A stretch of 64,000 nucleotides of DNA from Moniliella sp. 'wahieum' (GCA_003971905.1 RSEE01000076.1:186001-250000), one strand, 5' to 3'. Positions 1 through 64,000 are shown, numbered from the stretch's first letter. Numbers and translations are program-made. Notes: generated by a model not told the origin, from the sequence alone.

Positions 1-765
1 CGCAGACCGCTAAGCCCTCGACCACGAGGCACAAGCCCTTCCAACGTCTTCCTCACCTCGAGCTTGCTGCCGCCAGCCGTCAGCGCCTTGCCCTCCCGCG
101 ACCCAGCTACCATCTCTCATCAAGGAAAAGGGGGTCGACCGTTTTTATCTACCAGCACCGACGTTTCGTCGGGCTGCAATTGGTTCAACAATTTATGGCC
201 TTGCCCCTTGCCAAGAATCGCCCCTATATGCGCCCCCCTACCGACACCCGCCCACATGGTGGGGCTGTCTGCGCGTATGGGGGAGCTGGCCGCCGCATGG
301 GGGGCTGCCCAACATTGCGTCTATTTTTACCAAGGCCATTTTCCCAACCACCCCCCTCGTCGGCGGGCCCATGGTCCAGGCGGAAGAGCAATGGTATATG
401 GCCTTTCCCTTTCAACTGGCTTACGCACCGTCATGCTGCCGCCTTCTCGCTCCAGCGCATACAGGCCAACGTCGCCTTTGGGCCAGCAACGCTCGGTGCA
501 CGCCTCGCAAACACAGCCGCCATCTCACGCTCTTCCCACCGCCCGCCCGAGGTCCCCCCCTGAGGAGGGGGGAGGCAGTCAAGAAGATGTTTCCCATCTC
601 GACGACTTTCATTCTGCGCACCACGCCTCTTCTCCACACGAGGCTGGTGGGGCTGTTCGACCGCGGCACCTCTGCCGTGCCCGTTCTTCATCGCCTCGTC
701 CGCATCCGGTCGTGGTGGGGCTGTTGGGGCGATGCCCCAATATTCAGCACGTCGACCTTACGCTA
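1..765 (+). other. Possible degenerate or partial coding region, weakly LRR/F-box-like at its end
   Basis: Open frame 64-813 ends ...VVVGLLGRCPNIQHVDLTL, resembling the CPNLxxLDL leucine-rich-repeat motif. It runs directly into a TAACGTT array. No other recognisable domain. Confidence 0.2.
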
Positions 766-2103
766 ACGTTTAACGTAGTACCTTGTGGCAAGCTTCCAGC
801 TTTTAGCGTTTAACGTTTAACGTTTAACGTAACCTGCAACGGGTCACATGCGACGTCATAGAGTCACGCGTCATTGATTTTCACCCAGTCATCGATCATC
901 GATCATCGATCATCCGCGCCCGCCTGCCTCAGCGCCTTAGCGACAGCGCTGAGGCTCATCGATCATCGTGCATCGAAGGGGATCAGATCGATCAGCGCGC
1001 TCAGCCTGAGCGCTGCTCAGCCGCTCAGCCGCTCAGCCTTCAACGTTCATCCGTTCATCCTCTCATTCGCTCAACGCATTCGGTCTGGGATCCGAGTAGT
1101 GATCGATGATCCAGTGTTACATGTTAGGGACTCTATACTCAGTACATGTCAATCCGACCGAGGACAGGCCGAGGGCGGCGTGTCCCAACTGGCTGCCTCT
1201 GTGCGATTACAAAAAAGATGACTGTTATTTTCCCGCCGAGCCCGTTGGAGGTGCTTGCAGGTGCGGCGAGGTGCGAGGTGCGAGCTCCAGATTAGCGCCT
1301 CTAATTTTATGCGCGTCCAGCACGCCCAGCTTCTAGGTAACCAGTGTCGCGCGTAGCATGATGCATGTGACCTGTGACATGTGACATATGCATGTGACGC
1401 GTGATGCGCGTGACGCGCCCCGCGTGAAGTGTGCATCGATTAATGCCCTGTGGAATTATATCAATCGATCGTCAGTGACATTCTCGCAGCCCACCTCCAC
1501 TCTTTTTGGCTTGCAAAACATTCCTGCGATCCCAGAGATTGAATATCCGGGCGTTCCAGGACATCCCGCCAACGCTCAACACGTGCAACGTGCAACGTTC
1601 AAAACAGTGAACTATGGCTAACGACAGCCATAATATCTCGCCGCTGTCATTGAACCCCCGCCACTGCGAATCCTCCATTGCGGTGGTATACATTACAGAG
1701 AAGATGCTTACTTAGTACCTACGCCTTGGCTCAAGGGGGTACGGTGGTGCAGTACAAGAATGGTAAGGCCGGTAAGGCTCACATGTCACATGTATAATCC
1801 CACGGTCGAAACCCATCACAAGAAACAACGTTCACAATCATTCCGTTCAACCACAGCACCTGCAATGGCTAACCACTACATCCGACACTCCTTGCGCGCC
1901 AACAGGGATGCAGAATGAGACTCACTGGATCGCGAAGGCGTTAAACGTTAATCCCGTGGTCGCTTGGTTAACTTGTTACCTCTTTTCCACGCGAATTTAT
2001 GATCGTTATCGTTGTCTCTTGTTTCCGCTTTCCTTGGTACATATACATATTAGGGTTCCTAAATGAACCTTACAATCCTCATAATACCAGCAAATCATAT
2101 GAT

Positions 2104-2203
2104 GTCGGGTTAGCTCAGATGGGAGAGCGTGAGATTGAAGCAGTCTTCAATAGCCGATCCTTTGGATTCCTCAAGGTCCCCGGTTCGATCCCGGGACACG
2201 ACA
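2104..2203 (+). tRNA. tRNA-Phe(GAA), intron-containing
   Basis: GTCGGGT acceptor / ACACGAC-A; D arm GCTC-AGATGGGA-GAGC; anticodon loop TT-GAA-G followed by an intron containing CTTCAAT (complementary to ATTGAAG); T arm CCCGG-TTCGATC-CCGGG; T-run terminator immediately after. Confidence 0.92.
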
Positions 2204-2598
2204 CTTTTTGGGACTACTCTTGGCACATGTTACACTATTTTGTCTAAACCGCTCATTGAACGTGAACGCGGGAACGTTGAACGTGTTCAACACCCCCCGA
2301 GTCATCGTGCCACCCCGCCTATTCGCGCTTACGAGTTACGAGTTACTAGAGTTACTTCGCATTTGGACATCTACCAGCAACGAGTTGAGCGCTCGGTGAG
2401 CCGCGTTGCACCAACCAACCGGGTGAAGACCGGCTAGCCGAGCCAACCAACCAGTTTGATGCTATCCACCACAAACACCCAAACACCCAAACACCTAGGC
2501 CCAAAGGGCGGCAAGGGCGCACGCTTGCGCGTTCCGATTCGGGTCCGGGAGGATGCATTTGCAGTTGCATTAGACTCGGCTTTACAGGGAGCACATGG

Positions 2599-2663
2599 AA
2601 AAAAGGGGGCAAGAAAAGGGGGCAAGAAAAGGATGAGAAAAGGATGAGAAAAGGAGGAGAAAA
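2599..2663. repeat. Purine-rich degenerate tandem repeats (AAAAGGGGGCAAG x2, AAAAGGATGAG x2-3)
   Basis: Read directly from the sequence, just downstream of the SNF5 stop codon. Confidence 0.7.
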
Positions 2664-2718
2664 TAGAGGGTCACCCTTACCGGCTACCAGCGCGACGGCG
2701 CAACGGCAGAGCGGTGGG

Positions 2719-6593: not shown

Positions 6594-7049
6594 GCTGCCG
6601 GAGGCGGGGCGTCTCGTCGGGGGCACGCGAGCGGACCAGGCCGGGGGCAAGTCAAGCGGCAAGCTTCAAGCGGCAAGCGGCCAGGCGCAGCGCAGCTGAT
6701 GGCGTCTGCCGCCTCCCCCGCTCGGCTCCCAGTCCAGTCCGAACAGCGCCGGCCCAAAGGCTGGCCGCCAGCTCACCGGTAGCGTCAGCCATCGTCGCTT
6801 CAAGCTTCACTAGTACTAGTCGCTGTCATGGCACTCTCCACTGGTTGCGCTGTCCACCACTGCCCCGTGCTGCCCTGGGTAGGGTTGCCTGCTGCTCTCT
6901 TCCGCTGCCCGCTCCCGCCTCTTCACAGGGCTACGTCCCGCACTCGCTAGTCGCAGTGGCGGCCGCCCCCGTCGCCAGACCGTGGCCTCGCTGGAGCAGT
7001 CGTGCAGGAGAGCGGGGGAGGACATAGGCTTCCTGCTGCTTACAACACA

Positions 7050-14009: not shown

Positions 14010-14599
14010 GGCAGATGTGACGAGGGCAGAGGAGAGGAGACGCAAACGCCGGCAGCAGACACAACCACGACGGTGGAGCTGCCTTTGCGGTGACTTAACC
14101 TTCAGATCCACTGGGATGGGATGGAGGGCCATTTGTAATCTCAACGTCTCTTATGTCAGCACCGGCGCCTCGCGGTGGCGCCTAATGAAATTAATGAAAT
14201 TTCATGCAGCAGCCAATCTGCCCTTCCGCGTCGCGTCTGTGCAAAAATGTGCTCCTGCCCTCGCCTGGGGTTATAGTACCTCAACGGAAGACCTCGGTCC
14301 TAGGGCAGCACCGCAATGCAAGCCCATCCCACTCCCACTTCCACTTCGCATGGATGAGCAGCACCCACCCTTACGTTGGCACAAGTGAACATGCGTCCTT
14401 CATCCGTACGACGCTCCTCACTTCTTGGGGTAAACTTCTTCTCAACGCAGCAGCTGTCTAGCTATACTATACGATGCACGATGCATCAATACATGGCAAA
14501 AATGGGGTATACCATAGCGCTCCATTCCCGCCTCGAACAACAATCCAGTGAGAAGAGACAGCAGAACATGCAAACACGTACGTATAGCAGCACAGACAT

Positions 14600-15838: not shown

Positions 15839-17160
15839 GTCTGGACAGGAGTCGTGGCAGCGCTGTGTGAAAGCTCTGATGGGATGGGTAAGAAGAAGGT
15901 GCAGTTCAAGGTCAAAGAGAGGGGCGTTTCTTATTTCTTCCCTTGTTCGTCGAATGTCATGCGTGCACTACTATACCTTGGTCTGGTTCTCACGGTTCAG
16001 CTCAGCTATGTTGATGTTTGTACGGCAGAGGCGCATGCCTGCCCTGCCTGCCAGCGCCCCGCCGGAGCATCCCGGGCGTCGGGGCTTGGGCGGCTTAGCC
16101 GGGATTAATGGAGAATGGTTGTCCGCGTGTGGCTAGGCCGGCGTGGATGTGTCTGGGCGGGATGGGGAATGGGCAACTCATGGGTTTCACAGTGGATGGA
16201 GACTCTTCGAGACCCTTCGAGACCCTCCTACATTTGATTTTTGGCGATTTAATCAGATTGCAGAACAAGCAAGCCGGCGCAACGGCACGCGCGGGCACGC
16301 CAGGGCACTGCCAACGGAGCCGCGTTTGCAGGAAGGCCACAGGACCCTTCTTGGACCCTACACCCTCCGGCCACTCCCGACACGGACCACCACGAGCACA
16401 CAGAACCGCAGTGTGCACCGGTGCCTGCGTACACTCGTCTTGAAGCCAGAGCCAAGGCCTCAGGTACTCGTTACTCAGTAGCTCAACATCACCTCCGTGT
16501 ATCAACAGCGCCATCAGGCATCAGCGCATCGGCCAGCGCTGAGCTCAGCACCTCAGTGCGCCACCAGCGCGCGTCACGCGCATCAACATGCTTGAAGCTT
16601 GACATGTGACATGCTTGACATGGGACATGTGACACCCCAACAATTACTCACCATCTCAGCACCAACAGCAGCACACTACCCAAACCGAGTGTTCTAAACG
16701 CTTTCTCCGCAATCGCAACCGCGCGCGCGGGCGCCCGAACACATTTACTGGCTCAGCGTGCGCTCAACACGTTCACAACCGTTACAAGAACAAGTTGCAT
16801 ATCACTGTGTTCCGTGTTGCACACGCTTTTTACGCTACAGCAACATCCATATCCTTGACTTTTTGCTGTGTCCTCTTCCATCCCTTCCCCCCACCCCTTC
16901 CCACCACCCTTCAAGCTTCATTCAAGATTCTTGTACCAACCAGTTACCTGTTCTCGGGACCAACAAGAGCCAACCTACCTGCCAAAAGAGACGCGCGAAG
17001 CGGGTACGTGTTGGTCCAGGATGGGCCTGGGGAGCAAGGCAGTGGGGGATAGGTTAGCCATCAGGAGATGGGCATGTTCAAGTGGCATGCGCATACAAGC
17101 ACCGAGCCTAAACGTTTTCCACTGCCGACCAAAGTCGCGGCCATGGGCAGCACTCTGTAC

Positions 17161-18430
17161 TTATGGCTCTGTGTACTCTGGGTTGGACACCCAACCCAAG
17201 TCCAGCCAGCAGCTAAACGAGCCAACAAGGGACAAGAAGAAACAACAACAACAAAACCTGATTTTGGGAAACCTACTGAGCCCCACCAAGATCGATCGAC
17301 CAATCAAGGCCGAGTATGGGGAGGGCATAGATCTTGAGTGTGGTGTCCCAACCAAACAGGGCAGGGTCTCAGGAAAATGCTCGCCAAACCCACGCGTCAA
17401 GGTCGTCCCAGGCGAAAGGACAATGTTGGTTTACAAGTCCCGTCGCAAGTCCAGGTTGACACGGAACACTCTGTCGTACACCGCCTGGTGAACAATAACT
17501 GGGTACTGGAGCCCGACTAGGTCCGGGTTGAACAGGATCTCCAGCTCACGGAAAAGGGTTCGGGCCCGAGCCACGCAACAGGTACCGTGACCGGGTACCG
17601 GGTACCCGGTAGCGCTCAGCGTCATCCCTCGCCCCACCCCACTCCTCTCCCCGTCCCTCAGGGGGAAGGATACCATGCACCTTGGCGCTGTTTCCATCTG
17701 GGAGTTTGAATTCTTGGGTTTCGTGCGAAGTGCCAACATTGGTTTCTGCCTTGGCCTGGTTGAAGGGGGCTTAACCGCACTGTTCTTCTTTGATTGTCGC
17801 ATCACATCTTTATCTGCCAAGAGGTGCGGAGGCTCTTGATCCGTACCCTGTGGAGTCTTGCATCGGCACCTGCTCCACCACATCCCTCCTGGCCACGTCG
17901 ATCCTGCGCATAGCGTGGGGCATCGAGAACTAAGCCGGTAGTGGGACCTGTCGAGAGTAGAGGGTCAAGATGGCTTGGATGGAGGTAAAGACCACAAGTA
18001 CGTTGACCGTTTGGAAAGGCACTTGGGCTGCAACCTCGCAGGTTTGGCGTGGGTTGAGTGATGAGTACTGAGTCACAGTACTGAGCGGAGCCTGGGTGAG
18101 CAACACGGTATATGCCTCCGACAAACCGTCTTCAGTTCCTCGTCGTCAATGTGGGTCAAAATGTTTCCATGTCTTCCCAGTCGGTCATCAAACGTCATGT
18201 TCCATTGGGTAGCGGACCTGGTGCAGCCCGCGCAACTCTTCTGCCCGACAACCAACGAACATGTATCGCCCCTCTATGCCGCCCACCATGACGCGCGGGT
18301 ACTTGGGTCGGCCCACAAACTAAAGAAGGGAAGAAACAGTTGGGCTGCTCCTAGCCAGCAAAAAACCACTCTTAATGGTGCCTGCTCCATTGTCGATGAC
18401 GACACGACGGCTGGTTGGTGGGCAGTGGCG
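17161..18430 (-). pseudogene. ARP1: Decayed, intron-retaining ARP1 (centractin/actin-related) pseudogene
   Basis: Collinear fragments VVIDNGAGTIKSGF; VLLTQAPL[insert]NPR..QTVNV..FTSIQAILTLYS; EFKLPDGN; LEILFNPDLVGLQYP..VNLDLRRDL*TNIVLS.GTTLTRGFGE; KIYA; YSALIGRSILVGLS; WVSNPEY. It has an in-frame stop, many radical substitutions and insertions, unlike the indel-only damage in neighbouring genes. Confidence 0.8.
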
Positions 18431-19349
18431 TCGGCAAAGTTGCCGGGTGTGCTCAGGGATGGGTGCTGTTGTTGGGGGAGGAGCGGCACAGGAGCAGCAA
18501 GCACTCCGGTGGATGCACACCTGTCTCCCCTAGGCTGGTAGGCTCAGTGGGACGTAAGAGGGCGGTACGCCTCACGGCTTTAAGCTTTATGGGCCTTGAG
18601 CCTAAGCCTTGGGCCGTAGGCCTTGTGAAGCTAGCAGGGGTGGCATTGGTGCTACGCTGTCTCCCACTCCGCCTGTAAATTCCGCCGGCACGAAGTGCAA
18701 TTAATACAGCTCCTGCAGCCATGTCGATGACTGATGAACAGCTTCATCGACTTCATCGTTGGACTTCAACTTCATCCAAGTTGATAACCGGATGAACTCT
18801 AAGAACAGTGAATCGATGAACGTGGAACTTCAACTTGAACGTTGAACCGATCAGATGATCGATAACTTCATCGTTGACTCAATAAACTTCATCGGGTTCA
18901 ACTCACCGCGTGTCTTCGTCCACATGGTACACGTTGAACGTTGAACTTCAACGTTGAATTGAGGGCGAAGAGGCTGAAGCCCGCAACCACGTTTATGGGC
19001 AGCACCAGGCAGCGAAACTCTATAAGCAACAAACAACTTACCCGGGGGAGAAAAAGAGGGAGGGCTAGGGAAAATGGTTCGTTGGATAGGAGACGGGGCC
19101 CGAAGATGAGACCGTTGCACAAAAGACAAGAAGACTGGGATGGAACTCAACCAATAGGCAAAAGTGTATCGCATCAAGGATGCCAACCAACTGCTTGCAA
19201 CAGCTCTGGACCCTCAATGGAGGATGGGAGGAAATGAGTAGAAAGGTGGAGGAAAAGAGTAAAGGGGATGGTTGGTTCCGGGACCAAGCTGCCTCTGCCG
19301 AGGTTGCTCAGTCAGGGAGCTTTGGGCAAAGTGCTCAGCGGCTCGGCCT

Positions 19350-20533: not shown

Positions 20534-21833
20534 GGTGGCTGGCAGGGGGGGGGGGGGGGAGGGGGCGCTGGTGTGGGTGGAGGAGCAGGGGTGCGCTCGG
20601 CGGCCTGCCGATGTGTGTGGCCGATGCGTGGCACATCAAGCTGAAGTCTGGGCGTGACCGGTGACGGGGAGCGCTCAGGCTGAGCACGGCTGGCTCAGGA
20701 GCTGACGTCAGCCAGGGCAGTTTGGCGGACCTAGATCCCAATAACCCCTTTCGGCCTCAGGCGTGCCAAGGTTTTTAGGAACGGCGAGGGTTGAAGTCCA
20801 ACATTCAAACGTTCAGCGTTGAAGTTCAACTTGAACATCCAACGCACATCCCGCATCGTCCATCGCAGATCGTAATCTCCCGCGCTGACGTACGCGCATC
20901 GATGTGCTTTCACTGTTTCAATGCTCCTGCTTCGGCCGCGATTGACGAGCTCAGGCACCAAAGTGCTGGGAGAAGTTGCGATGGCGAGCGTCGCCCGTGA
21001 CCGCGTTGTGGCCATACACGGAGCTTTGCAATGCGAATCTCCTTCCAAGGAAGGCTCAGAGAAGAGCATAGCCGGTGTAGGTGGCTGCCCCGCAACGGCT
21101 ATTGCAGTGAGATAAAGGCCGAACGGATATTCCATCCCATCAGCAATTGTGCATTAGTATATAGCCACACAATCGTCGTCATATATATAGCACTCCTTTT
21201 TCAGCATCAGGCCCTAAGAGTAAGGAACACCAACTAGAGATCTTTTGGGGTGTGTATCTCGACAGACCATCCACTACCGCATAACAAGCAAGTGTGTGAT
21301 GCAATCGCTTGTGACATAGAAGCACAAGGTGCTATATGGATCGCGCGATAGCAATATCGTGTGTTAGTACTCCACACATACTATACGCAAACAGTCCGCG
21401 GGCCCTCATCGGCCCATCGCTTTACCACAAGAGCCGAGATGGAAAGGGTGAAAATACGAACACATCAGGTACGAATATGGAGCTTCAAGCTTCATTACTC
21501 ATTGTTGAAGCACGCGGTGCGAAGAAAAGTCCATCATGTGATGGTCGGACAAGCGCTGTGAGCGCCACACAGGGGTTGAAGCTATCATCACCACATTTAT
21601 GTTTTGTATGCAGTCCTGTTGTGCTCTACTCTGTAGTGTAGCTTAAACATGCCCCAGGAACGCTGTCACGCACTATAGATTGGGGCATGGTGTTTGTTAC
21701 CCTCGGATAGAGACATCTCTATACCGAGATTATCATTCCATATGCCTTGACTCATGCTTATAAAACGAGTTTTCTCTCTCTGTGCCACAGACTAAACCTT
21801 CCTTCTTCCCCCCCATTAACGACATTTAACGGC

Positions 21834-23756: not shown

Positions 23757-25548
23757 TTACTAACACTGCACAAGCGATGGTGCTTAAATTACGTTCTTTG
23801 CTGGTGTCATATACAAATCTGTCCAAAAGCAACAGACCGAAGAGTATTACATTGTAGCGACTTCGTGATCCGGGCGGTTATGGAGACAGCAACTATGGCT
23901 GCTGAAGGCGCTGAAGTATGTACGAAGGACACGATCAGAGTAGGGTAGGCGATCGATTGCGGAGAAATAGGCGTTTGGTGGTAGGATGAGGTCGATCAGG
24001 GCGAGAGGAAGACTACTCAGAAAAAAGAAGACTACTGTAGTTGTCGCTGGGGCTTACGTGGCTGCGCGCGCGCCACCAGCCTTCTCGGAGTCCGCGCAGC
24101 CCCGGGGGCTGGTGAGGCTGAAAGTGCTTAATTCACGACCGATGAAGTCAGCCGCCGCAACAACATGCAGCTAACAGTGAGTAGTGGGCGCCATAGCTAT
24201 AGCGGACCATAGCACTTTTAGTATAGCGCTTAGCGAGCAGCCATTTTTCACAACGTTTTTGTTCACTCCATCACCTCGTCTGTTGCTTTGAGCACCTAGT
24301 TTTGTTTACATGTTGTACCTGTGCATGTATGGCGGATCGCTAGCTGACTTGCTGACCTGCGCCTGCGACTGGCCGCTGTGCGAATATAGGAACAATTGAC
24401 GTGCAGGACATGGACCAAGGGTCTGAGGACCACAGCCCCCTCCGACCAGATCACTTTGATCTTCTTTACACATGCGGGCGCCATGCCAGTATCCCTATCC
24501 TCTCTGGCCTAGTGCCACACTCTCCTTTTAAATTATCCTTTTCTGCTGTTTCTCACTGCCAGGATTCAACGTGCTTAGCGCAGCGCTCAAGCTCAACTCA
24601 GCTCCAGTCTTCCCTTCAAGCTTCACCACTGCATAACTGTTCTTCGGACGTCGCTGGGGAACCACGATCATCGATCAGTAGGACACAGCCTATCGACTAT
24701 TCCCTTTGCATTTGTGTCAATGGAGGGGTATATATACACGTGATTCTGAGGCCGTGGGATTTACACCCAGTGGCGAAAACCCGATCAGGGGTTGGAGACA
24801 AGTTAGTATAGTGGTGTGACGATAACAGGCATAGGGGCAGTGTTGTTGCGTGGCGTTCTGCCGCGCTCTCGCGCACGCGCGCTCAGCCACGCCTGCGCCG
24901 AGCTGCTCCGAATCGGAGTACTGTCCCAGCCTGTGCCGCGGCCACTGCCACGCCAGCTACCCCGCACCAGCACAACACAGAACATACACAGCCATCTGCT
25001 GCCCGTGCGAACAACACGCAGGCGCAGGCCGTTACTCATTTGCAACTTAATTTTGATAATTGCCGCTGCGCGCGCATTGCGGACGGCGGGAAACCATGCG
25101 GGCTTGGTGCAGAAGACGGCCTGCTCTCGCACAGACAGCAGCACGGTAACCTCGTTACATGCATTGCACCGCCTCCCTGCGATGCTTAGATCTGTTGAGA
25201 GGTATGGACTTCTTATACCGGGTCGGGAGATGGCAGGGTATGTACCTGGATGTATACTCCTCGTGCAGCACCGCTTGGCTCCCATGATCGAATGTTAATG
25301 CTGATCTCCTCAACGTGTTCAACCGTTCAGCGTAATAGTAACAGCCTCGCAAACGCCTCATCTCACCGTTTTCAGCGAACGACAGGCGTCCAACCTGCCG
25401 CGCTTTGTGCTCGTTCCATTCGGCTCTCTCTTCAAAACCACCACCACATCTTCTTGCTTGTGTTCTTTTACCGCACGGCTCTTCATCTTCCTTGTCCCCT
25501 GCGCGTGGCCTTTTCTTCTCTCTTCAGTTGTTTTCAAGCCACCATATC

Positions 25549-29276: not shown

Positions 29277-29891
29277 TCGACTGCCTTCCAAACTGGCACA
29301 ATGTTATGCCATCAACGCATTCTGTGTACGTCAGCCATAGGATAACAAGATGTCCGTTCCCCCTGAAAGGGGGGGGGGGGGGATTACTGCATGCACAACG
29401 CGATGCACCATAGAACGAGTCGCTGTGAGCAAATTTGCAGCTCTTTTGATGTCACGACTGAAGATACTACTGCTGTCACCCCATCACTGCCTTACACGGC
29501 GTTCTCTCTGCTGTTGTGGATGTTGGCCGGTAATGAATGTTGCTTCTTTTGGACTTCGCTCGAACCGCATGCGCTTTTCTTCACGCGAGAATGGCGGGTC
29601 TCCTGATTGGGCTTGGTCGTGAAATTCGGAACCTGTATTCCTCTCCATCTGTTGCTTACCCCCTGTGCTCGCCATCTGTGACTTCGTGGGCGTCACGCGT
29701 CACCTCGTTCCGTTCTGCCAGGCGGGAAGGTTCGTATTTGGTCGTGCTTCTCGTACCTCTCCAGCGATCTCGGTGTTCTCGGTAATCTCCAAGAGTCGGA
29801 AGAAGAGCGTAAGATGATAACTCCCACGGCAGGCAACCCGGTTTTCGCTGAAGTATGACGCTTTCGCACCCTCATCCTCGTTGGTCTTCTC

Positions 29892-34905: not shown

Positions 34906-34934
<29 letters not shown>
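34906..34934. repeat. Poly-G run of about 29 nt
   Basis: Read directly; length is unreliable in long-read data. Confidence 0.85.
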
Positions 34935-34936
<2 letters not shown>

Positions 34937-38038: not shown

Positions 38039-38490
38039 GAGCCGGTGGAGAGGCGGTGGTGGTGGGGTGGTGTGGTGTGGTACGAGAGTGTGGTGATGCC
38101 GGTGATGATTCATCCGTGCCCCGAGGCCATGCCAGGGACTGCCAGCAGCCGCCGCGAGACAGCCCAATGCCCGCCGGGGGGTTCGGGGCGCGGGTGGGGC
38201 AGGCACTGGCGCAGTGTAGCGCTGGCCCCGGCACACACGCCGCTGGGCCGCGGGTGCGGGCGGCGGCATAATGCAACGCAGGCACACTGGCGCAGTGCAC
38301 CCCCTCCAGCATGCATCCCACCCATCACCCATCCCCACGCCCAGCGCTGATCCCCCGCTTCCAACTTTCAGGTGCGCTTGGGCTGCCCTGCCCCTTGCGC
38401 CAGCATGCATCATGCATCCCGCATCATCCATCCCTCGCATGCGCCACCACCGACCCCTCCCCCCCCACCACCCCTCGGGCCGTCGCCACG

Positions 38491-40579
38491 ATGGACGATG
38501 CGCTGCTGGGCGCCCAGCTCCAAGCTGCCGCCGCGGAGCTCCTTCCCCACCGCCCTCCCTCGGCCGGGCCCAACAGCAACCCCTCTTCTCCCTCAGTCCT
38601 CCTCGCCTCCCCACCGCCCTGGCCCAACTCGGCCTCGACACGCGCACCAGCGACGCCGATGCACTGCGTCTGCTGAAGCGCCAGCAATCCATACGCGCCT
38701 CAGTCCGCCGCCGCTCTCCTTGCTGCCGGAGGGCGTCCGGCTCCCGCCATCGCGCACTCCCGACATCTTTGCCACCGCCCTCACCTCTTAATCTCGCTAG
38801 CCCCCTGTCCTCTGCGTCTCCTACCTATCCTGCCTCTTCCCGGCTCGTGCGCCTGCCCAATGATGGTCCCGATGCTCCTCCATCCCGCACGTCAACCCCT
38901 CAGGTTGCACCCCCTCATCGCGCTGAGACGATGCCCGATGAGCGACTGTATGCTTCCACCGCACTCGGCGTGCCCCGCACCCCGAGTCCACGCCTGCCGC
39001 GTGCCCCTTCTCCCGGCTCGCCCAGCCACCCAAGTCCACTGTCTCTGCAGCAGAGTCCGCGGTCCCAGCGAGATGAAGAACGGGGACACGCCTCACGTCT
39101 CCCTATGGCCACGTACCCTTCCGCCCCGGACCCGATCGGCCTGGCAGCCGAACCCCCATCGGTCGCACCAAGTCCCCCCTCTTGGACGACGCCTTTAAGG
39201 GCATCTGGCTCAACTCGCGGGGTGAAAAAGTGGTGGAGGGGCAGGTGGTGGGCACACTGGACTTGGCGCCCTACCGATCCCGTCCTACCTCGCCTCAGTC
39301 CCACCACGGTCTGAGTCCCGCTTTCACCCGGCTGCCCTCGCCGCTATCGAGCGACAAGTCGTCTGCGTGGAAACTGTTGGAAGAGACACCAGGCTCGCGC
39401 GACCCCCACCTCTCAAGCTCAGCATGCGTATACCCCCCTTTTTCACCCACACTTTTCCCCATGCCATCCCCGGTCGACGGGGCAGCCTGGACTTGAGCAA
39501 CCCGACGGCCGCGCGCAATCTTCTAGTCCCACAAAGAACGATAAGAGAGGCAAGTCCAAGATGCCGTTCTGCTTCAGTCCCATCCGATGCCTGCGGCAGC
39601 TCTGCGAGCACGGATATTCTCAGCCCCCTGCACCATCGTCGGATACCTTACTTTTACTGCCCGACCCGGAGCGTGGCGAGCGTGATTCGCGTTCGGTGCC
39701 TACCACACCCCACCTGGGCCGGTCGAGGAGCACTACGCCTGTGCCCCTTTTGTCCGACGGGATGTCTTCGTCGGGTGTGGCGTGGGCGTCGGAGTGGAAC
39801 CGTCTTCTTCTCAGGTTGGTAGCCGCTGCCAACCCACCACAACCCGACTCGCAACCCGACTCGCAACCCCACGATCGCCTCGAACCTCATTCTCGTCGTA
39901 GCTCTGCCTCATCGGCTGCCTCCTCTCTCGTCTCGCTTCCGGTATCGGTGGTGACAGTTGCATCTGAGGGTCCGTTTGCCGAGCCCCGTCGGCGGCCAGC
40001 CAAGTGGGCCACGTGGTTTGCCGGGGTGGGTACCAACCTGTTTGGTGCGCGTGCGCCCGCTCCGCCGGCTCCGTCCGCTCCCGCCGCCTCGGGCGCATAT
40101 TTACCCACGAGGTGCGCATCCGGGGCTGGTCCGAAGTAGGTGGGGGGTGGGCGGGTTCGTGGTCTATCATGTTGTGATTGTGCTCAAGACGGGTCGAAGA
40201 TTGAGTTGGTAAAGCGGTACTCGTCGTTTGTTCGGCTGCGGCAAGCGTTAGCGACGGAACGGCCGGATGCGGCGGGGCAGACTACCACTCGATCGGCACG
40301 TCCGCGTTTGCCCGCCTTGCCTCCTAACACCCGCTACACAAGTATGCGGCTACGTATCTCGAGACGCGACGACGTACGTTCTGCTGCTCTGTTGTTGAGT
40401 GCTGACTAGGGACTAGTTATTGGTTATTGCTGCCAAGTCTGCCCTCTGCCCCGTACTGAGTACTGATACTGACCTTGATCTTCCCCGGCGCACTCCAAAC
40501 GTGGCTTAACACAATCATGCTGGACCCGGTTTGGGCCTCGTGCGCTTCGTTGCAAGAGTGGATTGTGGATGCTGGGTAA
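38491..40579 (+). CDS. PX (phox homology) domain protein, Ypt35-like, with long low-complexity N-terminus
   Basis: FVVYHVVIVLK.GSKIELVKRYSSFVRLRQAL..LPALPP, and a final exon LQTWLNTIMLDP..SLQEWI typical of PX domains. Confidence 0.7.
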
Positions 40580-42918
40580 GACCGATAAGAGCCAAGAGCG
40601 GGTTCGGCCGAGACGGCACCCCGGCTGCCCACACGCGCGGTAATAGTGACACGTGATACGCATGCTCTGCCTTTTGGCGTTCGGATCCGAGTACCGATTC
40701 TTTACCCCTTAGATATCCCCGCCTAACCTTGTTGGTTCTGAATTGGACTGTCGACGTTGCGTTGATGATGCAAGATGCATGATGATGATGACGGATGGAT
40801 GGATGGATGGTGGATGCTGGAGAGTTCTGAGATGACGGATGCTCGATGCACCCCTTGAAGCTTGACCTCCATAAGCTCCCATGCATCCTGGTCGATGGTG
40901 TGTGTAAGATGAGGCCATGGGCGAGGGGTGCGATCGAAAGGTGACCGTGAGAGGGCGAGGAGGCCGTCACCGCGTCACCTGAGAGCGGTCGGGATCGTCG
41001 AGAACGTTACGGCGTTTGCGTAAGCGTTTAGACTTTAACGTTTTAGCGTTTAAGGTTTAACCCCCGCATAGCTACGAGCTTGCAAAATGGGCTGGAGACC
41101 TGTGCACTCAAAATGTGTACAAGAGAATCTGAGCAAAGTGAGAGAAGCTTTTATATAAGTTCTGATGTCAGGCCGGCTAAGCGCTAATCCAATCTTACGT
41201 GCCAGAGGGAGAGAAAAGGGAGAAGGAGAGGGAGAGGCGCGCCGCTGTCTGGCTGGATTCGGTAGGCTCGGGTCGCAGAACGCAGCGGCTCTTCACTTAG
41301 CGCTTACTGGGCTTTTGGCGCTTAGCGCTTAGCTTACCGGTTACCGGTTACCAGCGACTTGGCTGGTACAACCATGCCAACTGAGTGGTGCCACATGCCA
41401 TTTCGCATAATACACTCTAACAGATGGCGAAGATAATGCTAGAGATGCTAGAGATGCTAGAGATGCTACACATTGGGGGGGGCCGTGGGGTGTAATGGCA
41501 CCGGTACCCCAAGCGTGTGGTCCCCCGTTCCGTGCATTCCTTCCAATATTCCTTCCTGGAGGGCAGGAATATTCTCTGGATATAGCCTCTGTAGCTCATG
41601 TGCAATGCCAAATACACCATCATGTCAACTGTGCCCGCAATGCTCTCTGTCTTCTACAAAGAAATGGAATAGATGTAACAGATGGACAGAACAGATGGAA
41701 CAGTTGAATGGAACAGCAGAACGTGTGCGTGGATGCATCTGGCATCTGGCATCTCTATCTCCCCATACGGGGGGCAGCACTACGCCCCTCTGACAACGCG
41801 AGCTTCTCTGGTGCTCGGGACTCAGTACTCAGTGTACTCACACGCGTTTTTCCGGGGGCTTTCCTTTTCGGGGAATTGAGGTGGGGGGAGCCGGTGGCCT
41901 TGTCCCGTAGGGTCTTTCTAGGACGCCCGCAGGTCTCGCCGCCATCGCCGCGCCCATGTCCGGGAGAGTGGGCTGGTGCGGTGTGCTGCATGATTGGCTG
42001 GGATCACGATCACGCGTCACGCCGATCATGATCGATTACGTCGATCACATGGGACATGTGATGTCGCAGCCCGTGTCACGTATATCACATGTCACATGTC
42101 ATATTCATATGGCATGCCAGGGCATGCCCGCCTTGCCTGCCGCCTGCCGCCCCGCCTGCCCAGCCACGGCCAGCCTCCTTTGCAATAGTGATACACTAAT
42201 CGACACGCCAAGCCATGGCTGGCACGGACATGACATTCACATTGCTCTGGGCCCCCGTGCGTATGAGCAGCAGTCTGTCTGCCCTGCGGCCTCGCGCAAG
42301 CAAGCGCGCACCAGCGGGTATAGCACGCCGCGGAGCCGCTGAGCGACTTGGCGCTCGCTTCTCACCACTGGTACTAGTTGCTGACGCTCAGCCCTCCCCG
42401 CTCGCTTCTCATCAACTCATCACTCGCGGCTTGCTCAGTATTCGGGACGCACCACTGGGCGCCTGATGGGTGCGATATCTGGTTGGCTGGGCCCAAACCG
42501 CCATATATCAATCCCGCGGCTCAACGTTTAACGTTTTAACGTTCAACAGTGCCCAGACGCCGTGGTTTCGGCAGCGATTTCCGTCTTCTTACATGGCCGA
42601 CGGCCATACCCACGGAACGTCGACCCAGCTTGTGGTGCGGGGCCCCTCAGGCCCTTCAGGCCGCAGGATAACGCGCCACAGGGTCACGGTCACGGGCCAC
42701 AGGGTTTCGGGCTGCAGGGTCTCGAGCTAACCTGTCTAGCCCGAGCGAGAGACTGGTCACTACTGACCCATATGTCCGCCCAATCAGCCCATCTTTTTGT
42801 CATTTCCTCTGCGTGGCAAGTCCTTGCGGACATCCTCTGCTTTACTCTTAAACCCCCTCGCCACCCCCCTTTGACCTTCCTACTCCACACGCGTCGCTAC
42901 ACTTTTGCCCCCACCTCC

Positions 42919-45010: not shown

Positions 45011-46209
45011 CAAGGCATTCCGGACGCGCTCCCGGCCTCCTCTCCCGGCCTCCCCTTCCTCTCCTTTACTTCGTGTTCAGTGTGTGTCGCGGCCACCACG
45101 CTTGTCGCACTTCACTCGATTCAGTACTTTACTATCGCCCTTATTTTCTGGTTTGCTACTCAGGAAGACACTAACCATGAGTGCGGCTAGTATGAGACCC
45201 ACAGCGCAAAACAGTAACTGTCTCTAATACCTCGTCTGTTTAGCTCCTGTGGGCTTTGGTGAGATCCAATCGCTAGTCGACACAATACACAATATTTGGC
45301 CACAGTGACGTATTGAGCTTCCTTTTCTTTCTTCCTTCCTTCCCTGCCTGACTAGTGACTGCCCTCAAAAGTGCTAAACGAGCTGCTAAATTCGCTCATC
45401 TCTTCGCTTGCGACCTTCCAAATAAACGAGAGGGCATCCCTGCGACCAAGGTTGCTTTGGCGAAAGGTACTGGAATATATCCTTCTTGCCCATATTACTA
45501 CTCTGCCTTACTAGGGGAGAGTAAGAGAAGGTTGTTTGGGGGTTGTAGCATCGGGGTATCTGGCCCGGCCTGGGCCACAGTAAGTTCTCGCTCACACGGA
45601 GGATGAGGACGGCGAGGTCTCACCAAATCGGATTGCCATGTAGTAAGTAGCTTACACGCAGAGAACAGGTAGGGTGGGATTCGCGTCGACCGCCATTACT
45701 GCGGCAGCAGAAGAGAGAGATGATGCTATGGCCATGACCACTGGAGAACCCTGCTGAGCAAGCGGGATGCCATGGTACAGCCAACTAGAGATCATGATCA
45801 CGAACGTACCGGATTTGACCCAGACATGGGCTCACGCGCCGAAGTACAAGAGAAAAACGGAGAGAAGTAAACACTACTACACCGGTCCCCCTCGTCCACT
45901 TGCCGCCGCCAGCCTGGCCTAGAAGACGAGGAGGGCGGGTCGAAGGAGGAGGGGGTATTGAGATCCATCAGTTGATCGTCAAGCTTCATCGACCATCGAT
46001 CGACCATTGCTCATGCATCACGCATCACCCGTGGCAGATGGGAGGTGCGACGGTCAGATGTCACGTGTCACAACCCTAGCCGCCGAGCCCGGTGCACAGG
46101 CGGGACACTGACGTAGTGCTTTCCGCCCGCACGGACCGTTGCGCGGGCGAGCTGAGCCGCTGGAGCTTGCTGCCGCCCCACCACCGCCTCCCCCTGCCTG
46201 CCTGTGCCG

Positions 46210-53400: not shown

Positions 53401-54275
53401 GGTGGTGGGTGCTAGGTGCCCCCCCAGTCGCTTACCTAACGCATGGAGATGGCGGGGGCATTTTACCGTTTCAAAGAGGGCTTTGGAATCTGAAGACAAC
53501 GCGCAGTGGCCCGTGCGTTGTAGTTCGCAGTGCCACCAGGGCTGCTCTTGCTCAAAACGTTCAAGCTTCGGGTGAATGAGCCTGTGTACTCCTGGTGGCC
53601 TGTTGCGCAGTCCTCGGTTGTGGGTCCCAGGTTCGACCGACGGGGCCTGTCGAAGCTTGAAGGTCAGGCTGACCGTTCTCGTTCGATATTCAGTGCGCCC
53701 CCCCAGTCTGGGGTGTGTTGGCTGGATTCGTCGGGAACAAAAGAACACAGCGCGACCCAAAAAAGGCCCAAGGCCTGACTTCTGAGGTCTCGGATGGCAC
53801 ATGCCCCAAACGATGCAAAAGACAGCCTAGTAATCATTAATCATTGCCATCAGTGTGACTATTAGTGACTGGCTGTGCGGCAAGTAGAAACCGGCTGCTT
53901 GCATCATCGTTCGTGGGGGCGGAGTGCCCCGGAGGGCAGTGCGGATTCGATGAGGATCGGATGATCGAGATGATCTCGGTGGTCTGAGATGGAGATGTGA
54001 AAAGGTCGCACAAGGTCACGTGGCCGGAGGGAGACGCCCAGCAGCTACTGAGCCGGTGCTTCACAGCCTCCATCCTACAGACCGGCTGGGTTGCTGGTGC
54101 TGACTGGGAGCGAGAGACGCGAGACGAGCCTGGTGGTTGCTGGTTGCTGGCGAGTGGTTGTGGTTGGTGGCTGTTGCTTCCTGGTTGCTGACTGCTGGCT
54201 GCTGGCTTCTGCGACCGGTTCCTTGTTGCTGGCCCTGCGCATCCTCGCCGCCCAGAGCAGCAGGCAACCCCCCAG

Positions 54276-57559: not shown

Positions 57560-58099
57560 GCTTATAGCATTCCTATCGTACCCGCCTATCTCCCCCCGCG
57601 ACCTGTCTCCCGCCTCGTCTTTCTCTCTCTCTCTTTCTCTCTCTCTCTCTCCCGTTGCCCGTTGCCGTTGCCCGTATTGCCGTTACCAGGATGTGGTTTA
57701 CCCTCTGATTCCCCCCCCTATGCGTCTACCACGGAAGCTAGTTCCTTTTGATGCCCCCAATCTCGGTTGATCAATGATCGTTAAATGTCCTGGGGCTTGT
57801 CCCCCTAGTCCCCCCCCGGCCTTAACCGGTAACCGTTAACCCTCCTAGCCCCTCTTTGTACGCCCTCCGGAGTCTGCTTTACCTGATTCCCATCCTGTCG
57901 CAGCTTGGGACTCCTCCCCGCTGCCTGGCGAGTCCAAATGGACCACGTCGAGCCCGAGTGGTCAGAACTTTGGAGAAGGCTACAACATCTATGCATATTG
58001 CAATCCTCCTCACCAACCTGTTAAACGATTGGAACGTCATTAATCATTAGGCTTGTAGACGATCGCCTGCCATCATCGATTCGGATCTACATTTAACAT

Positions 58100-59748: not shown

Positions 59749-60748
59749 GTTGGTGCTTCGTCTAGTGGTGTGGGGATGAGGGGGGAGGGGGGATAGGGAC
59801 GCAGTAGGGTGGTATTACTAAGTACTTCTCAATATGGTATGCTTTGTGGGCGAACAACGCAACAATGGGGGCCGGGAGAGGAGGGGGGGGAGAGAGGAGG
59901 GCGGCGCACGGGCGGGGCCGGAGCGGCGGCAGGAGGTGTGTGACATGTGATGCGGCCCAAGGCCACGGACCACGACGCTCCCCACGCGTCCCCGTCCGTG
60001 GACCGGAGTGCACATTGCGGCATGTGGATGAGGCGGGCCGGTGGAGGGGGCGGCGTGATGGTCGATTGTGGAAGCGCAGGATGCGGCGTTTGGTTGAGCC
60101 GGCGATGAGCGGGGGATGCAGATGGGCAGAGGCGAAGCTGGCGAAGCTAGCGAAGCTTGAAGAGGGCCACGGAGTGCGGAGTGTGCGTAGTGAGTACGAA
60201 AACGTCTGTAGACTGTGGACTGAGTACTGAGTACATTTGCCGCTGGCCAGCAGCTGTGTGTGCGTGCCTGTGTGCTGACGTCACTGTCACATGTCACCCA
60301 GCCCGCCGCTGAACATTTCAGCTGGAGCTCATGCGTCTGGCTCTCGCACGGAGGCCACAGGGGCTGTGCACACTGGCCAGATGCGGCGATGCCCGCCGAG
60401 CCACTCGATTCCGAGGCGCTGCGACTGGCAGTAGGAGGGCAGTGTCTGGGGGAGCGTCCGTGTCACATGTCACATGCCACATGCCACGTGTCGACTATCG
60501 GTTCAATATGCAATGCCCGCTCGGCGCCAGCCAGCCGTTCGCCCTCGCTTCGTTCCGCACAGCACCGCACAGCCTCGCACCGCACCGGCCACTACTCAGC
60601 ACTCGGCCTGTGTGCTCAGCCACTCAGGTGAACCTTCCAACGCACCAACACGCAGTCTGTGTACTCGATCCAACCGCAAGAGCAACACATCCGAGCTCCG
60701 CCACACCCACACAACTACTCCCCCTCCACCACACCTACCACCTCCCCC

Positions 60749-61812: not shown

Positions 61813-61917
61813 GCACTCGTGATCAAGTGGTTAAGATGCAACTTTCCCATAACATTGGGGTTCCATCATGAGGAGCTAGCACAAGTTGTTGCCCGGGTTC
61901 GAATCCCGGCGAGTGCA
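61813..61917 (+). tRNA. tRNA-Gly(CCC), intron-containing
   Basis: GCACTCG/CGAGTGC-A acceptor; CAACT-TT-CCC-A[intron containing TTGGGG]-AGTTG anticodon arm; CCGGG-TTCGAAT-CCCGG T arm; T-run after. Confidence 0.9.
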
Positions 61918-62459
61918 CCTTTTTTGTTCTTCTTGGTCTCCCACCAATCTTCCCCTGCCCCAGCTTTCAGGCTCATCTGTCTCTCCATTTCCCGAGACAA
62001 AATCTGCACGAAGATGGGGTTGCACGACAACTCTTCTATATAGGCTCACCTCCACGTCGACAGCCAAGTGCGTTGTTTCGACTGAGCTCACAGTGCGACA
62101 ATACAACAAGTCCAGACTGATCTCCGTCATGCTCTGTGCCCTGTTGCGTTCTTCACGCAACAAGTGCAAATGTAGACTGAGGTCATCTCGTAGGGGTACG
62201 TCTTTGGGTGCGTGATGCACCTGTGCGCGCCCAGAAAATTAAAGTTCGGGGGCGGGGGACGTTGCACATGAAGCTCTGTGCGATAGCCGATCCTCAACAA
62301 GCTGATTGTGCGCTCCATCAGGAACACCCCTCATCTTCTCAAAGAGCTGGGCACACTCATTTCTCAAGGAACCGACTGATGTAGAGGAAGAAGAGGATGA
62401 AACGCGGCTCGAGAGGAAGGCCATTGCAGGTGGCCCGCATTATCATGGAGTGAGTGGAG

Positions 62460-62600
62460 ACCCCGAGCGTTTTGGAGGACCACCAAGAATGGAAGAGGAG
62501 GCTCACGCTTTGAGGGGCTTTTGGCGTAAAAGAAGGGCAAGAGTGCGTACCGGAAGGTGAGGTACATGCGGAAAAACACCTGGAACGTATTGGAACGGCC
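62460..62600 (+). repeat. Fragment D of the dispersed degenerate coding repeat
   Basis: AGAGTGCGTACCGGAAGGTG (62540-62559) matches the reverse complement of 44790-44809 at 19/20. Translation KSAYRKVRY..LER versus QSAYRRVVHY..LER. Confidence 0.65.
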
Positions 62601-62636
62601 CCGTTGCGATGGAAGTCACGAAGGCTATTTCATCGG

Positions 62637-62729
62637 GCTTCAATGGGTTAGTGGTATACTATATCGTTGCCAAGCAGCTTCAAGCTTCTTCGCCTCGATA
62701 TGACAGGGGTTCGATTCCCCTTTGAAGCA
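62637..62729 (+). tRNA. tRNA-Gly(GCC), intron-containing
   Basis: GCTTCAA/TTGAAGC-A acceptor; TATCG-TT-GCC-A[intron]-T-CGATA anticodon arm; AGGGG-TTCGATT-CCCCT T arm; T-run after. Confidence 0.92.
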
Positions 62730-64000
62730 TATTTTTGGTCGTTCACCGCCCTAGGCAACACGACAGAACCAACGAAGGTACAGTAGGGGATTTGGGGTTG
62801 GGGATCTGTGAAAAGTGAATGGACGCAATACTGCGCGCCACTGTAACGTATATATTAGAGCCGTTCGCCTGCGCATCTTTGGAACAGGTTTTTTTCATTC
62901 CACAAGTGGACCAGAACCCGACGGAGGGCAGCGTAAAGGTACTTTCCGTTTCCTTTCATACGACACTTTGCTGGTCGCATAAATCCCCCAGGAGAGCGCA
63001 GTATTATATGTTTTTCCTTCAACGGCTGGCCCACAGTAGACACCCGGCTATCTTGGAGGGTGGAAACCGCAGAGCAACAGACGTTTTGATCATGTATAGC
63101 TGAGCTGTACACACGAGCTTAGGAAATATTCCATCCCTCCAGAAAAAGGGAGAACACCGGAAGGACTGTGCAACAAGCTGGGCCTGGGATGCCATCATGC
63201 CATATAGAAACCTTGCGCCATGATATATGGACCATACTGCCCCGTGCTGGATGACGAGACAAGAGGTGATGCATGATGCATGACGCAGACCAACAGCAGC
63301 CGGGGTAAATTTTAAAGCCCGTCTCCTTGCCAGGCGGGCCAATGCCGTGGGCTGCCATGGCTTGGAGCCAAAGAGGAGGCCTGACGAGGCTCTCGCTGCA
63401 TGTCTTCCTCCCATGGGACAAGACCGTGGAATCGATGCCGTCTCAATCGGCAGCAACGTGATACTTTAGGGTTAGGGTTGGCATGGCGAGACAGTGAGTT
63501 TTTTGTGGTTGCAACAATCCACCATCAGCTTCCGGCCCGGACAACGATCCAAAGAGGCCAACAGTAGGCTTATCGATCAAAGTCATCCTCACTGGCCTCC
63601 ATTGCGGGTGCGTTCCTAACAGGTCGAGTCAACTATGGCATCCACTATCAAGACTGGTCCCACGCACTAAGCCACTGGCCTTGGCGCCCTCACAATCGCA
63701 AGCAGAAGAGAAGGGAGAGATTACTGTTCAATAGGTTGGCTACTCCCCACCGACTTGTCTGGTCCTCCAACGCAGTCCACTCGCCAAAGGGATCAATCCG
63801 GCCCAACCACAACGAGCACGTCCCGGGGACGGATGAAAAGACCGACGGATTTTGTGCTGTCCCGCTGCGGCACCATGACCGACAGGGGGGAAGTGCTGCG
63901 GAACGAAAGAGGTGGCGAATCGGTCAAGGAACGCGTGCCTGGGCCCGACGATGCACCCGACCACCTCCGTCCGCCTGCCCGACCCAAGGGGTGGAGAGGC

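Follow-up and report, generated by a model that had tools for sequence, protein, structure and literature searches.

What kind of process could fill non-coding DNA with short tandem arrays that differ in sequence and share one geometry is the question raised by a stretch of Moniliella sp. 'wahieum' DNA (GCA_003971905.1 RSEE01000076.1:186001-250000; hereafter the window, 64,000 nt, one strand), for which an initial annotation had proposed a 7-base grammar made of an A-N4-T hexamer plus one spacer base. Genic and non-genic DNA were separated by means of 19 gene spans drawn by hand (30,729 bp), most of them backed by Pfam, with about 33 kb of the window lying outside; conserved genes are often broken across reading frames, pointing to indel errors in the assembly. 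With order-3 Markov shuffles of the window as the expectation, exact primitive period-7 tandems numbered 51 in the whole window vs. 3.55 ± 2.2, set beside 90 vs. 54.5 for period 5, 85 vs. 14.5 for period 6 and 9 vs. 0.55 for period 8. Fifty of the period-7 tandems lay outside gene spans (2.1 expected) and one inside, confirming the 7-bp arrays of non-coding DNA as real, and period-6 tandems were split between 42 inside and 43 outside. The heptamers originally quoted, printed out and read, are present at all 23 stretches cited for them, although at 6797, 16910, 32344 and 45351 they amount to 1.5 to 2 copies rather than to arrays, and the core of TTACGAG (2329) is not palindromic. The A-N4-T grammar itself applied to about half of the arrays: among the 50 non-genic period-7 tandems, the A-N4-T hexamer was palindromic in 24 (2.0 expected) and non-palindromic in 8 (11.2 expected), a different palindrome occurred in 1 and the other 17 had neither, and the A..T excess is confined to the palindromic class. 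The anticipated A..T boundary bias was equally evident from palindromic hexamers, which with A..T ends reached 288 vs. 171 expected in the window, where neither other end pairs nor palindromic octamers were enriched.

The unit with a net gain of 7 bases (+7 unit), in which T-N-A is followed by a 4-base palindrome and by the same T-N-A again, occurred 59 times vs. 1.9 expected, and never in gene spans, although these hold 998 of the 2436 TNA sites (p 3e-14). The inverted TNA form around a 4-base palindrome was found 2 times vs. 1.9 expected; the N of T-N-A was a direct copy in 59/68 cases and a complement in 2/68, so that plain fold-back fails, as does the suggested fold-back or template-switch copying through the junction, which would complement N. 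Of 32 trinucleotide pairs, only TCA/TGA (44 vs. 1.5) and TAA/TTA (15 vs. 0.5) were far above expectation. The palindromic cores used 12 of the 16 possible sequences without a consensus, the only fixed bases of the unit being T and A and positions +2 to +9 lacking a strong base preference; a single transcription-factor site, already doubted in the initial annotation, would show one consensus. Plain slippage was rightly doubted as well, since a slippage microsatellite has at least two full copies of its unit, whatever the unit, and 31 of the 59 units are shorter than the full 14-base tandem; slippage nonetheless still extends some arrays.

The origin of the cores is indicated by their flanks. 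In 27 of the 34 solo units the core is a copy of the 2 outer bases of one flank, whereas 100,000 core shuffles gave 6.3 such units on average and never more than 19, and in the remaining 7 it matches neither flank; in 52/59 units at least 2 bases match on one side. For the flank pattern the log-likelihood was -105.5, as against -114.4 under a slippage model with one parameter fewer and its mutation rate optimised, a deficit of 9 log units for slippage. Outside genes the product spectrum (observed/expected) was +5 8/2.4, +6 10/1.25, +7 58/0.28, +8 6/0.1 and +9 8/0.02, with no product from +10 to +14. Among TNA-centred 7-base direct repeats spaced by 9 (+9 forms), the intervening dinucleotide was the exact mirror in 7/7 cases outside gene spans, as against 12/48 with other centres, and an eighth TNA-centred case, in a gene span (38092), also fits. 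Six of the seven are not full tandems, and four have asymmetric flanks with both flanks duplicated; because both flanks are whole in each copy, the duplicated target would be 7 bases long. The units form the following chains and forms:

810..1126, +7 cluster: chains 810-826 (2 units), 864-873, 889-912 (3 units), 956-965, 1040-1049, 1100-1109 and 1117-1126; +8 forms at 1015, 1023 and 1045
1375..1951, +7 units at 1375, 1395, 1779 and 1942
1762-1777, +9 form [GGTAAGG]CC[GGTAAGG]
2329..2356, decayed array whose core CGAG differs by one change from the CTAG that the flank would give
2341-2356, +9 form [AGTTACT]AG[AGTTACT], at the end of that decayed array
6800..6809, solo +7 unit with its left flank copied into the core
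14184..14199, +9 form [AATGAAA]TT[AATGAAA], ambiguous, being at the same time a complete 9-base tandem
16593..16609, mixed chain ct TGA AGCT TGA CATG TGA ca, each core derived from the flank on its own side
16911..16920, solo +7 unit with a core taken from the left
18062..18944, +7 units at 18062, 18580, 18836 and 18935
18742-18757, +9 form [CTTCATC]GA[CTTCATC], the cleanest asymmetric case
20655..21494, +7 units at 20655 (the only solo core fitting an offset hAT-type form) and 21485
23901..24677, +9 form [GCTGAAG]GC[GCTGAAG] (23901-23916); +7 units at 24616 and 24668
29693..30777, +7 units at 29693, 30438 and 30768
30443-30458, +9 form [AGTGACT]AG[AGTGACT]
31731..33162, +7 units at 31731, 31814, 31993, 32235, 32255, 32343 and 33153; +8 form at 31786
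38092..38107, +9 form [GGTGATG]CC[GGTGATG], in the DUF2408 span upstream of the likely start codon, probably in a UTR as judged from the ORF
40457..42101, densest cluster: +7 units at 40457, 40856, 41178, 41297, 41322, 41334-41350 (2 units), 41822, 42010 and 42085-42101 (2 units)
40965, +8 form [CGTCACC]G[CGTCACC], in the densest cluster
45349..46020, +7 units at 45349, 45979 and 46011
53834..53975, +7 unit at 53834; +9 form [GATGATC]GA[GATGATC] (53960-53975)
57823..58046, +7 units at 57823 and 58037, flanked by a convergent gene pair
59941..60472, +7 units at 59941, 60221, 60287 and 60463, flanked by a divergent gene pair
63267..63283, two-unit chain, core TGCA

These features support the idea of one fixed-geometry break-and-rejoin process at T-N-A, and the +7 units are, in our judgment, likely to be scars left by the excision of a cut-and-paste DNA transposon that would duplicate a 7-bp NN-TNA-NN target, whose flush flank hairpins would be opened 2 bases off the tip and whose repeated hits would give rise to arrays. 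Starting from an empty site ab-TNA-cd, insertion with a stagger centred on T-N-A would duplicate abTNAcd, the stagger being put at 7 bases because the +9 class keeps both copies whole. On excision the transposase would seal each host flank as a hairpin, probably flush because the palindrome is even and loop-less, and a host nuclease would nick each hairpin 2 bases 3' of its tip, in analogy to the main product of Artemis in vitro. The opened ends would carry 4-base self-complementary 3' overhangs, c-d-d'-c' at one end and b'-a'-a-b at the other, which may be joined face to face with one of them kept, giving ab TNA cdd'c' TNA cd or ab TNA b'a'ab TNA cd, a net gain of 7; the final sequence is the one read in the window, and the joining step we infer from it. 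Such a scar has two TNA sites with symmetric inner arms, so that further hits and later slippage could lengthen it into arrays of perfect 7-base repeats or into mixed chains. The mixed chain at 16593..16609 reads like a site that was hit twice in succession, in an order that is our reconstruction. The scars would remain where they are harmless, with no function of their own that can be shown.

The P arm would be of 2 bases in most products, as the counts of the +7 and +9 classes and the lack of longer products suggest. Where ab = cd, the predicted overhangs are complementary to each other over their terminal 2 bases and a +9 product is expected; this holds for 2/4 asymmetric +9 forms (1762, 14184) and for 2/33 one-sided +7 chains. 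Three of the eight +9 forms, at symmetric sites, could be dinucleotide slips instead. The window contained no +11 product with both P arms, and no asymmetric site had the core cd+ab that a simply retained duplication would leave. The +9 forms rule out a target duplication of 5 bp combined with a single P arm, and an 8-bp hAT target N-A-N4-T-N predicts a complemented N, contrary to the data. Decayed units were abundant, with one rule violated in 53 vs. 3.75 expected and two violated in 126 vs. 54, a tail that points to a long-running process.

Among known systems, the closest include V(D)J coding joints with P nucleotides and excision by the RAG1-like Transib transposases. Host-opened flank hairpins are reported for hAT, Transib, RAG and MULE (PMC5499845), and Artemis opens hairpins mainly at +2, that is 2 bases 3' of the tip, leaving a 4-base palindromic 3' overhang that corresponds to the core described here (PMC2175297). 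The footprint expected of this type, an even, loop-less and flank-copied palindrome, is the one present in the 27 solo units. However, P nucleotides are missing from most V(D)J joints (PMC2175297), whereas most visible products here retain one end's complete P arm, and the CMCT elements (EnSpm, Transib) are described with duplications of 2-5 bp (PMC12730594), unlike the 7 bp centred on TNA. Over 90% of Muta1 excisions in yeast are precise (PMC5499845); precise excisions would leave no visible mark in the window.

In hAT elements the first nick falls one base into the flank, yielding odd palindromes with cores c-d'-a'-b and the innermost duplicated base complemented, an offset-hairpin footprint that only 1/34 solo units fits. 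Odd palindromes of 9 bases, TNA-xyx'-TN'A, in which N is complemented, made up a further class enriched outside genes (16 vs. 3.6), its assignment to the hAT-type offset form being divided 8 vs. 8. The hAT elements Ac/Ds, Tam3 and Hermes share flank hairpins and palindromic footprints with the present case (PMC5499845), and hAT7 of the rust fungi Puccinia and Melampsora has 7-bp duplications (PMC12730594), the length proposed here, which among hAT elements matches hAT7 alone, hAT duplications being otherwise of 8 bp. In the parts of that source examined no TNA preference of hAT7 is mentioned; its Figure 1, with the target sequences of hAT7 and Kyakuja, may bear on such a preference of either. 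Kyakuja of Laccaria likewise has 7-bp duplications (PMC12730594). In Cryptococcus, EnSpm-like CNEST, CNIRT6 and KDZ elements are mobile, but their duplications differ from a 7-bp TNA-centred one (CNEST 2-bp TA, CNIRT6 3-bp, KDZ1 8-bp, KDZ2/3 4-8-bp; PMC12810828), and the words 'footprint' and 'excision' do not occur in the main text of that article.

Tc1/mariner and PIF/Harbinger elements also leave a short direct repeat around a few bases. The cores of their footprints are the element's own ends, fixed per family, and their duplications are TA and TWA, respectively, PIF/Harbinger copying nothing beyond. Here, in contrast to Tc1/mariner, the repeat is TNA around 12 flank-derived cores, and in contrast to PIF/Harbinger, 39 of the 52 chains have C or G as N and the flanks beyond TNA are copied; Harbinger is described with 3-bp duplications (PMC12730594). 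Bendich and Rogers (10.1101/2023.02.20.529178) similarly propose transposon insertion followed by imprecise excision as a source of the short direct repeats in spacers; their case concerns rDNA spacers and its abstract gives no scar rule, whereas the P-nucleotide rule described here operates at the base level and can be tested site by site.

No convincing TIR element with a 2-9 bp duplication was present within the 64-kb window, nor an element with CA..TG ends and a CMCT transposase, nor a hAT transposase among the frames examined by Pfam; transposase families were absent from 148 intergenic frames (the longest of 218 frames of at least 48 aa) and from 107 long frames chosen from the 148 longest, and a dispersed repeat of the window, read by eye, held no polarised +7 event. 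No element with a 7-bp TNA-centred target was found in the literature searched. In addition, the scars are more uniform than the usual output of end joining, which speaks against the excision-scar reading. The lack of an element in the window, the uniformity of the product, the high density of chains (52 in the 33 kb of non-genic DNA) and their clustering (27/52 within 100 bp of another vs. 14.6 expected) would all suit a hairpin-forming nuclease, be it a RAG/Transib-like enzyme, free or domesticated, or some other, that cuts TNA with a 7-base stagger at sites holding no element, the ends being then filled, hairpinned, opened and rejoined. We regard this as unlikely: a duplication followed by hairpins at the inner ends requires two steps, which insertion and excision supply in order, and to our knowledge no enzyme does both without an element. 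It is equally doubtful that, in this fungal lineage, a domesticated RAG-like enzyme cutting T-N-A across open non-coding DNA works as a sequence-programmed +7 mutator that generates repeats throughout the genome.

Template switching, as first suggested, would have the nascent strand pass TNAcd, copy 2-3 bases of the opposite strand and re-anneal at the T of TNA. It can yield the same +7 product on paper and is in line with the odd palindromes; a priming step would moreover suit the third flank base, which extends the palindrome on 29/53 copied sides vs. 15.5 expected, although decayed longer arrays explain part of this excess and of that in the (0,3) class of the flank pattern (10 vs. 4.1 simulated), both of which weigh against the excision-scar reading. 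Nothing in this scheme fixes the centre to TNA, other symmetric triplets not being enriched, nor does it account for the 2+3+2 geometry, for a +9 class with both flanks duplicated or for an N that is not complemented in the main class, and we hold it to be improbable. Ordinary 7-base slippage, with its products retained near genes by selection for a symmetric DNA-binding protein reading TNA-palindrome-TNA, appears more improbable still. Slippage is active here, as the 26 period-7 tandems outside the palindromic class and the extended arrays indicate, and the units are clustered and exclusively non-genic; nevertheless, a protein cannot make a core copy its flank, there are 12 cores without consensus, over half of the units fall short of a full tandem, and the median distance to a gene edge, with hand-drawn spans, is larger for the units than for background TNA (1118 vs. 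620 bp). With two of them, at 57823 and 58037, lying between convergent genes, the units are furthermore not restricted to promoters. A sequencing or assembly artefact is hardly credible, for even if the assembly has indel errors that split conserved genes across frames, such a process would be blind to gene limits and does hit genes, while gene spans hold none of the units, and decayed units exist. An idea based on stop codons (TNA as TAA/TGA on either strand, a period of 7 covering three frames) was discarded, TAG/CTA units being 2 vs. 0.4 and the copying of flanks left unexplained.

Outside the window, pattern scans with one of its arrays returned at least 127 loci (at least 121 metagenomic, 6 viral), 41 of them with about 600 bp or less, and the multi-core grammar was absent at all loci among the matches listed. 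Flank-copied non-seed units numbered 10 in 477 kb (0.021/kb) among those matches vs. 42 in the window (0.66/kb), a comparison that omits the cores CATG, TATA and ATAT on both sides and serves as a negative control, not as a survey of relatives. In metagenome contigs, the glutamate decarboxylase gene, used to look for relatives, gave 80 pattern matches, none of them confirmed. The Ustilago heptamers cited in the initial annotation (ATTCGTG/ACTCGTG) have the cores TTCG and CTCG, which are not palindromic and would thus not follow the refined TNA-palindrome-TNA rule; no description of them or of that pattern was found in the literature searched, which covered few subscription papers.

Should the excision-scar reading be true, about 1.6 intact chains per kb of non-genic DNA and a like number of decayed ones would amount to very many cycles of insertion and excision in a compact genome, though the window shows no element, and to a dated, site-by-site archive of past transposition. 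Transposon traffic, and not slippage, would then seed tandem repeats, and the scars would offer indirect evidence in a fungus for RAG-like flush hairpins with Artemis-like opening at +2. Since the scar rule predicts every empty allele exactly, it is cheap to test. The suggestion that such products survive only in unconstrained DNA agrees with the absence of +7 units from gene spans; it does not cover the in-frame +9 form, also missing from clear coding DNA (the one case in gene spans is probably in a 5' UTR), an absence to which target choice may contribute beside survival.

The non-coding DNA of the window carries a real, rule-governed mutational scar. The initial annotation had described 7-bp arrays built on an A-N4-T hexamer plus one base; all the stretches it quoted lie where it placed them, and the array excess was confirmed, with 51 exact period-7 tandems in the whole window against 3.55 in shuffles. 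Confinement to non-coding DNA was borne out as well, 50 tandems lying outside gene spans (2.1 expected) and one inside; the 19 spans were hand-drawn and total 30,729 bp, and the remaining 33,271 bp, taken as outside, surely still includes some unannotated genes. The proposed grammar held for palindromic A-N4-T hexamers, present in 24 of the 50 outside tandems (2.0 expected), but not for the remaining 26, of which eight had a non-palindromic A-N4-T (11.2 expected) and 18 matched neither class. To the eye, several of these 18 look like mutated members later lengthened by slippage.

The recurrent unit, or +7 form after its net gain in bases, consists of T-N-A, a four-base palindromic core and the same T-N-A again. 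Palindromic cores occurred in 68 of 169 TNA-N4-TNA sites (10.6 expected), with little or no excess at spacers of 2, 3, 5, 6, 7 and 8. Fold-back copying, as initially suggested, fails for the whole junction: the two N were identical in 59 of the 68 sites and complementary in two, therefore TNA is a direct repeat and inversion is limited to the core. Of the 32 trinucleotide pairs compared, two stood far above expectation, TCA/TGA (44 vs. 1.5 expected) and TAA/TTA (15 vs. 0.5), lesser excesses such as ACG/CGT being mostly the same arrays in other registers. The 59 units are arranged in 52 chains (46 of them single, five double, one triple), use 12 of 16 possible cores and are directly seen to be excluded from gene spans (0/59; p 3e-14), while 27 of the 52 chains lie within 100 bp of another (14.6 expected). 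That scarring has gone on for a long time is suggested by decayed units with one violation (53 vs. 3.75 expected, though the same array may contribute overlapping counts).

If ab-TNA-cd denotes the empty site, a unit has the form ab TNA cdd'c' TNA cd or the mirror image of it; this product rule, with its seven-base span and two-base mirror arm, is read directly from the DNA. In 52 of 59 units the core agreed with one flank over at least two bases, the opposite flank mostly showing no agreement, and 31 of the 59 were shorter than a full 14-base tandem. Cores matched the flank in 27 of 34 solo units (permutation mean 6.3, maximum 19), and the chain at 16593 combines one left-derived and one right-derived core. 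When the flank pattern was simulated for the 46 single chains, 7-base slippage gave a log-likelihood of -114.4, against -105.5 for a hairpin model, which has one parameter more and under-predicts the (0,3) class (4.1 simulated vs. 10 observed).

We read the units as probable scars left by insertion and excision of a cut-and-paste transposon with a 7-bp NN-TNA-NN target duplication, both the sequence of events and the enzyme being what we infer. When a joint carries a palindrome without a loop, it bears the signature of a hairpin that was opened. Insertion would act with a 7-base stagger at the target, excision would leave flush hairpins that are then opened at +2, and two 4-base overhangs joined face to face would give the +7 unit, from either side; an end opened at its tip or joined by microhomology would give a +9 product. 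The first event would leave symmetric inner arms, re-hits then yielding perfect arrays, and because re-hits would act on such arms many unrelated arrays would share one geometry. Host-flank hairpins are left by hAT, Transib, RAG and MULE enzymes, with their opening attributed to the host (PMC5499845). Artemis cuts hairpins chiefly 2 bases 3' of the tip, so that 4-base 3' overhangs remain (PMC2175297).

The fit of TNA pairs outside genes to any left-hairpin prefix plus any right-hairpin suffix gave observed/expected counts of 8/2.4 at +5, 10/1.25 at +6, 58/0.28 at +7 (including three register repeats), 6/0.1 at +8 and 8/0.02 at +9, with no products among these pairs from +10 to +14. A strict test took 7-base direct repeats at a spacing of 9, outside gene spans: all seven centred on TNA held a mirror dinucleotide between the copies, vs. 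12 of 48 with another centre; from this and the product spectrum we infer a duplicated target of seven bases. Six of these seven +9 forms are not full tandems, the one at 14184 doubling as such, and an eighth case at 38092 likewise fits the dinucleotide rule. Of the seven, four have asymmetric flanks, with ab and cd each duplicated; the other three are symmetric and may have arisen by slippage of a dinucleotide. Two forms, those at 1762 and 14184, have identical ab and cd, the condition under which the two predicted overhangs would end in complementary dinucleotides; the numbers are small, but they point the way the model predicts. The cleanest +9 form is:

18742: [CTTCATC]GA[CTTCATC], asymmetric flanks, both duplicated

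Several observations count against the excision-scar reading. No mobile element or transposase was found in the window by a TIR-plus-duplication search and Pfam on frames, and neither a plain retained duplication nor a double-P product is present in it. The scars vary less than the joints known from other systems, at which P nucleotides are mostly lost (PMC2175297). Moreover, the third flank base continued the palindrome on 29 of 53 sides (15.5 expected), and homo-dinucleotide arms rarely became core (2/31 used vs. 11/31 unused).

The hAT hairpin is offset, and the core expected from it occurred in one of 34 solo units; because the scars fail this chemistry, they look RAG-like rather than hAT-like, and in how they work they resemble joints of V(D)J recombination or of Transib. 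Their 7-bp target differs, however, from the 2-5 bp duplications described for the CMCT group (EnSpm, Transib, Plavaka) in PMC12730594, where 7-base duplications in basidiomycetes are given for hAT7 and Kyakuja. The grammar was absent from public loci seeded by one window array, among the at least 127 matches listed, with 0.021 flank-copied units per kb vs. 0.66 in the window (cores CATG, TATA and ATAT left out on both sides), and the literature searched yielded no description of the scar pattern.

Nine-base odd palindromes, TNA-xyx'-TN'A with complemented N, numbered 16 outside gene spans (3.6 expected), nine of them reaching 13 bases, with cores mostly GGC/GCC or ACT/AGT. They are the sole feature suiting fold-back and are unaccounted for by the excision-scar reading; one possibility is a minor type of scar whose mirror arm is longer, another a binding site.

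950-1010, 18830-18950, 20675-20835, 27955, 44970, 50249, 53664: odd palindromes

The window is gene-dense, eukaryotic and about 58% G+C, with Pfam matches to SNF5, UPF0220, Na/H exchanger, glutamate 5-kinase, 2Fe-2S subunit, BAR protein, amino-acid permease, 3-hydroxyacyl-CoA dehydrogenase, ribosomal L7Ae, Frag1/Sfk1, capping protein alpha, GMC oxidoreductase, ubiquitin-conjugating enzyme, KH protein, glutamate decarboxylase and WW protein. Reading-frame breaks every few hundred bases in conserved genes (33585-34647, 13330-14150, 46156-47769, 58103-59814 and others) are most simply indel errors in assembly. The closest named relatives of the decarboxylase in the protein search are the basidiomycetes Tilletiaria (56%) and Ceraceosorus (55%), none of them close; three unnamed proteins (P0001-P0003) are nearer (67-71%) and form with it a long-branched clade in a 35-row tree. 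Judged by these relatives and tree position, the host is likely a smut-related basidiomycete.

58103-59716, minus strand: glutamate decarboxylase (protein search, tree)
62637-62729: intron-bearing tRNA gene (Rfam; none by ARAGORN)
~2101-2195, ~61805-61918: intron-bearing tRNA genes by eye, without Rfam or ARAGORN match
29885-30046: (TCTTCC)28 array
34906-34934: run of 29 G

A dispersed repeat of about 300 bp (32735-33042, 44341-44657 inverted, 8146-8202; aligned blocks 84-95% alike), which lacks clear inverted ends and matched nothing in Pfam, is probably the remnant of a mobile element. A short minus-strand frame at 17434-17964 resembles by eye a decayed actin-family fragment, with no Pfam match at 0.001. 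Single or double telomere-like TAACCCT(A)/TTAGGG motifs were seen by eye near gene starts (32199-32207, 34645-34652, 46071-46078, 63467-63480), one of them upstream of the ribosomal L7Ae gene.
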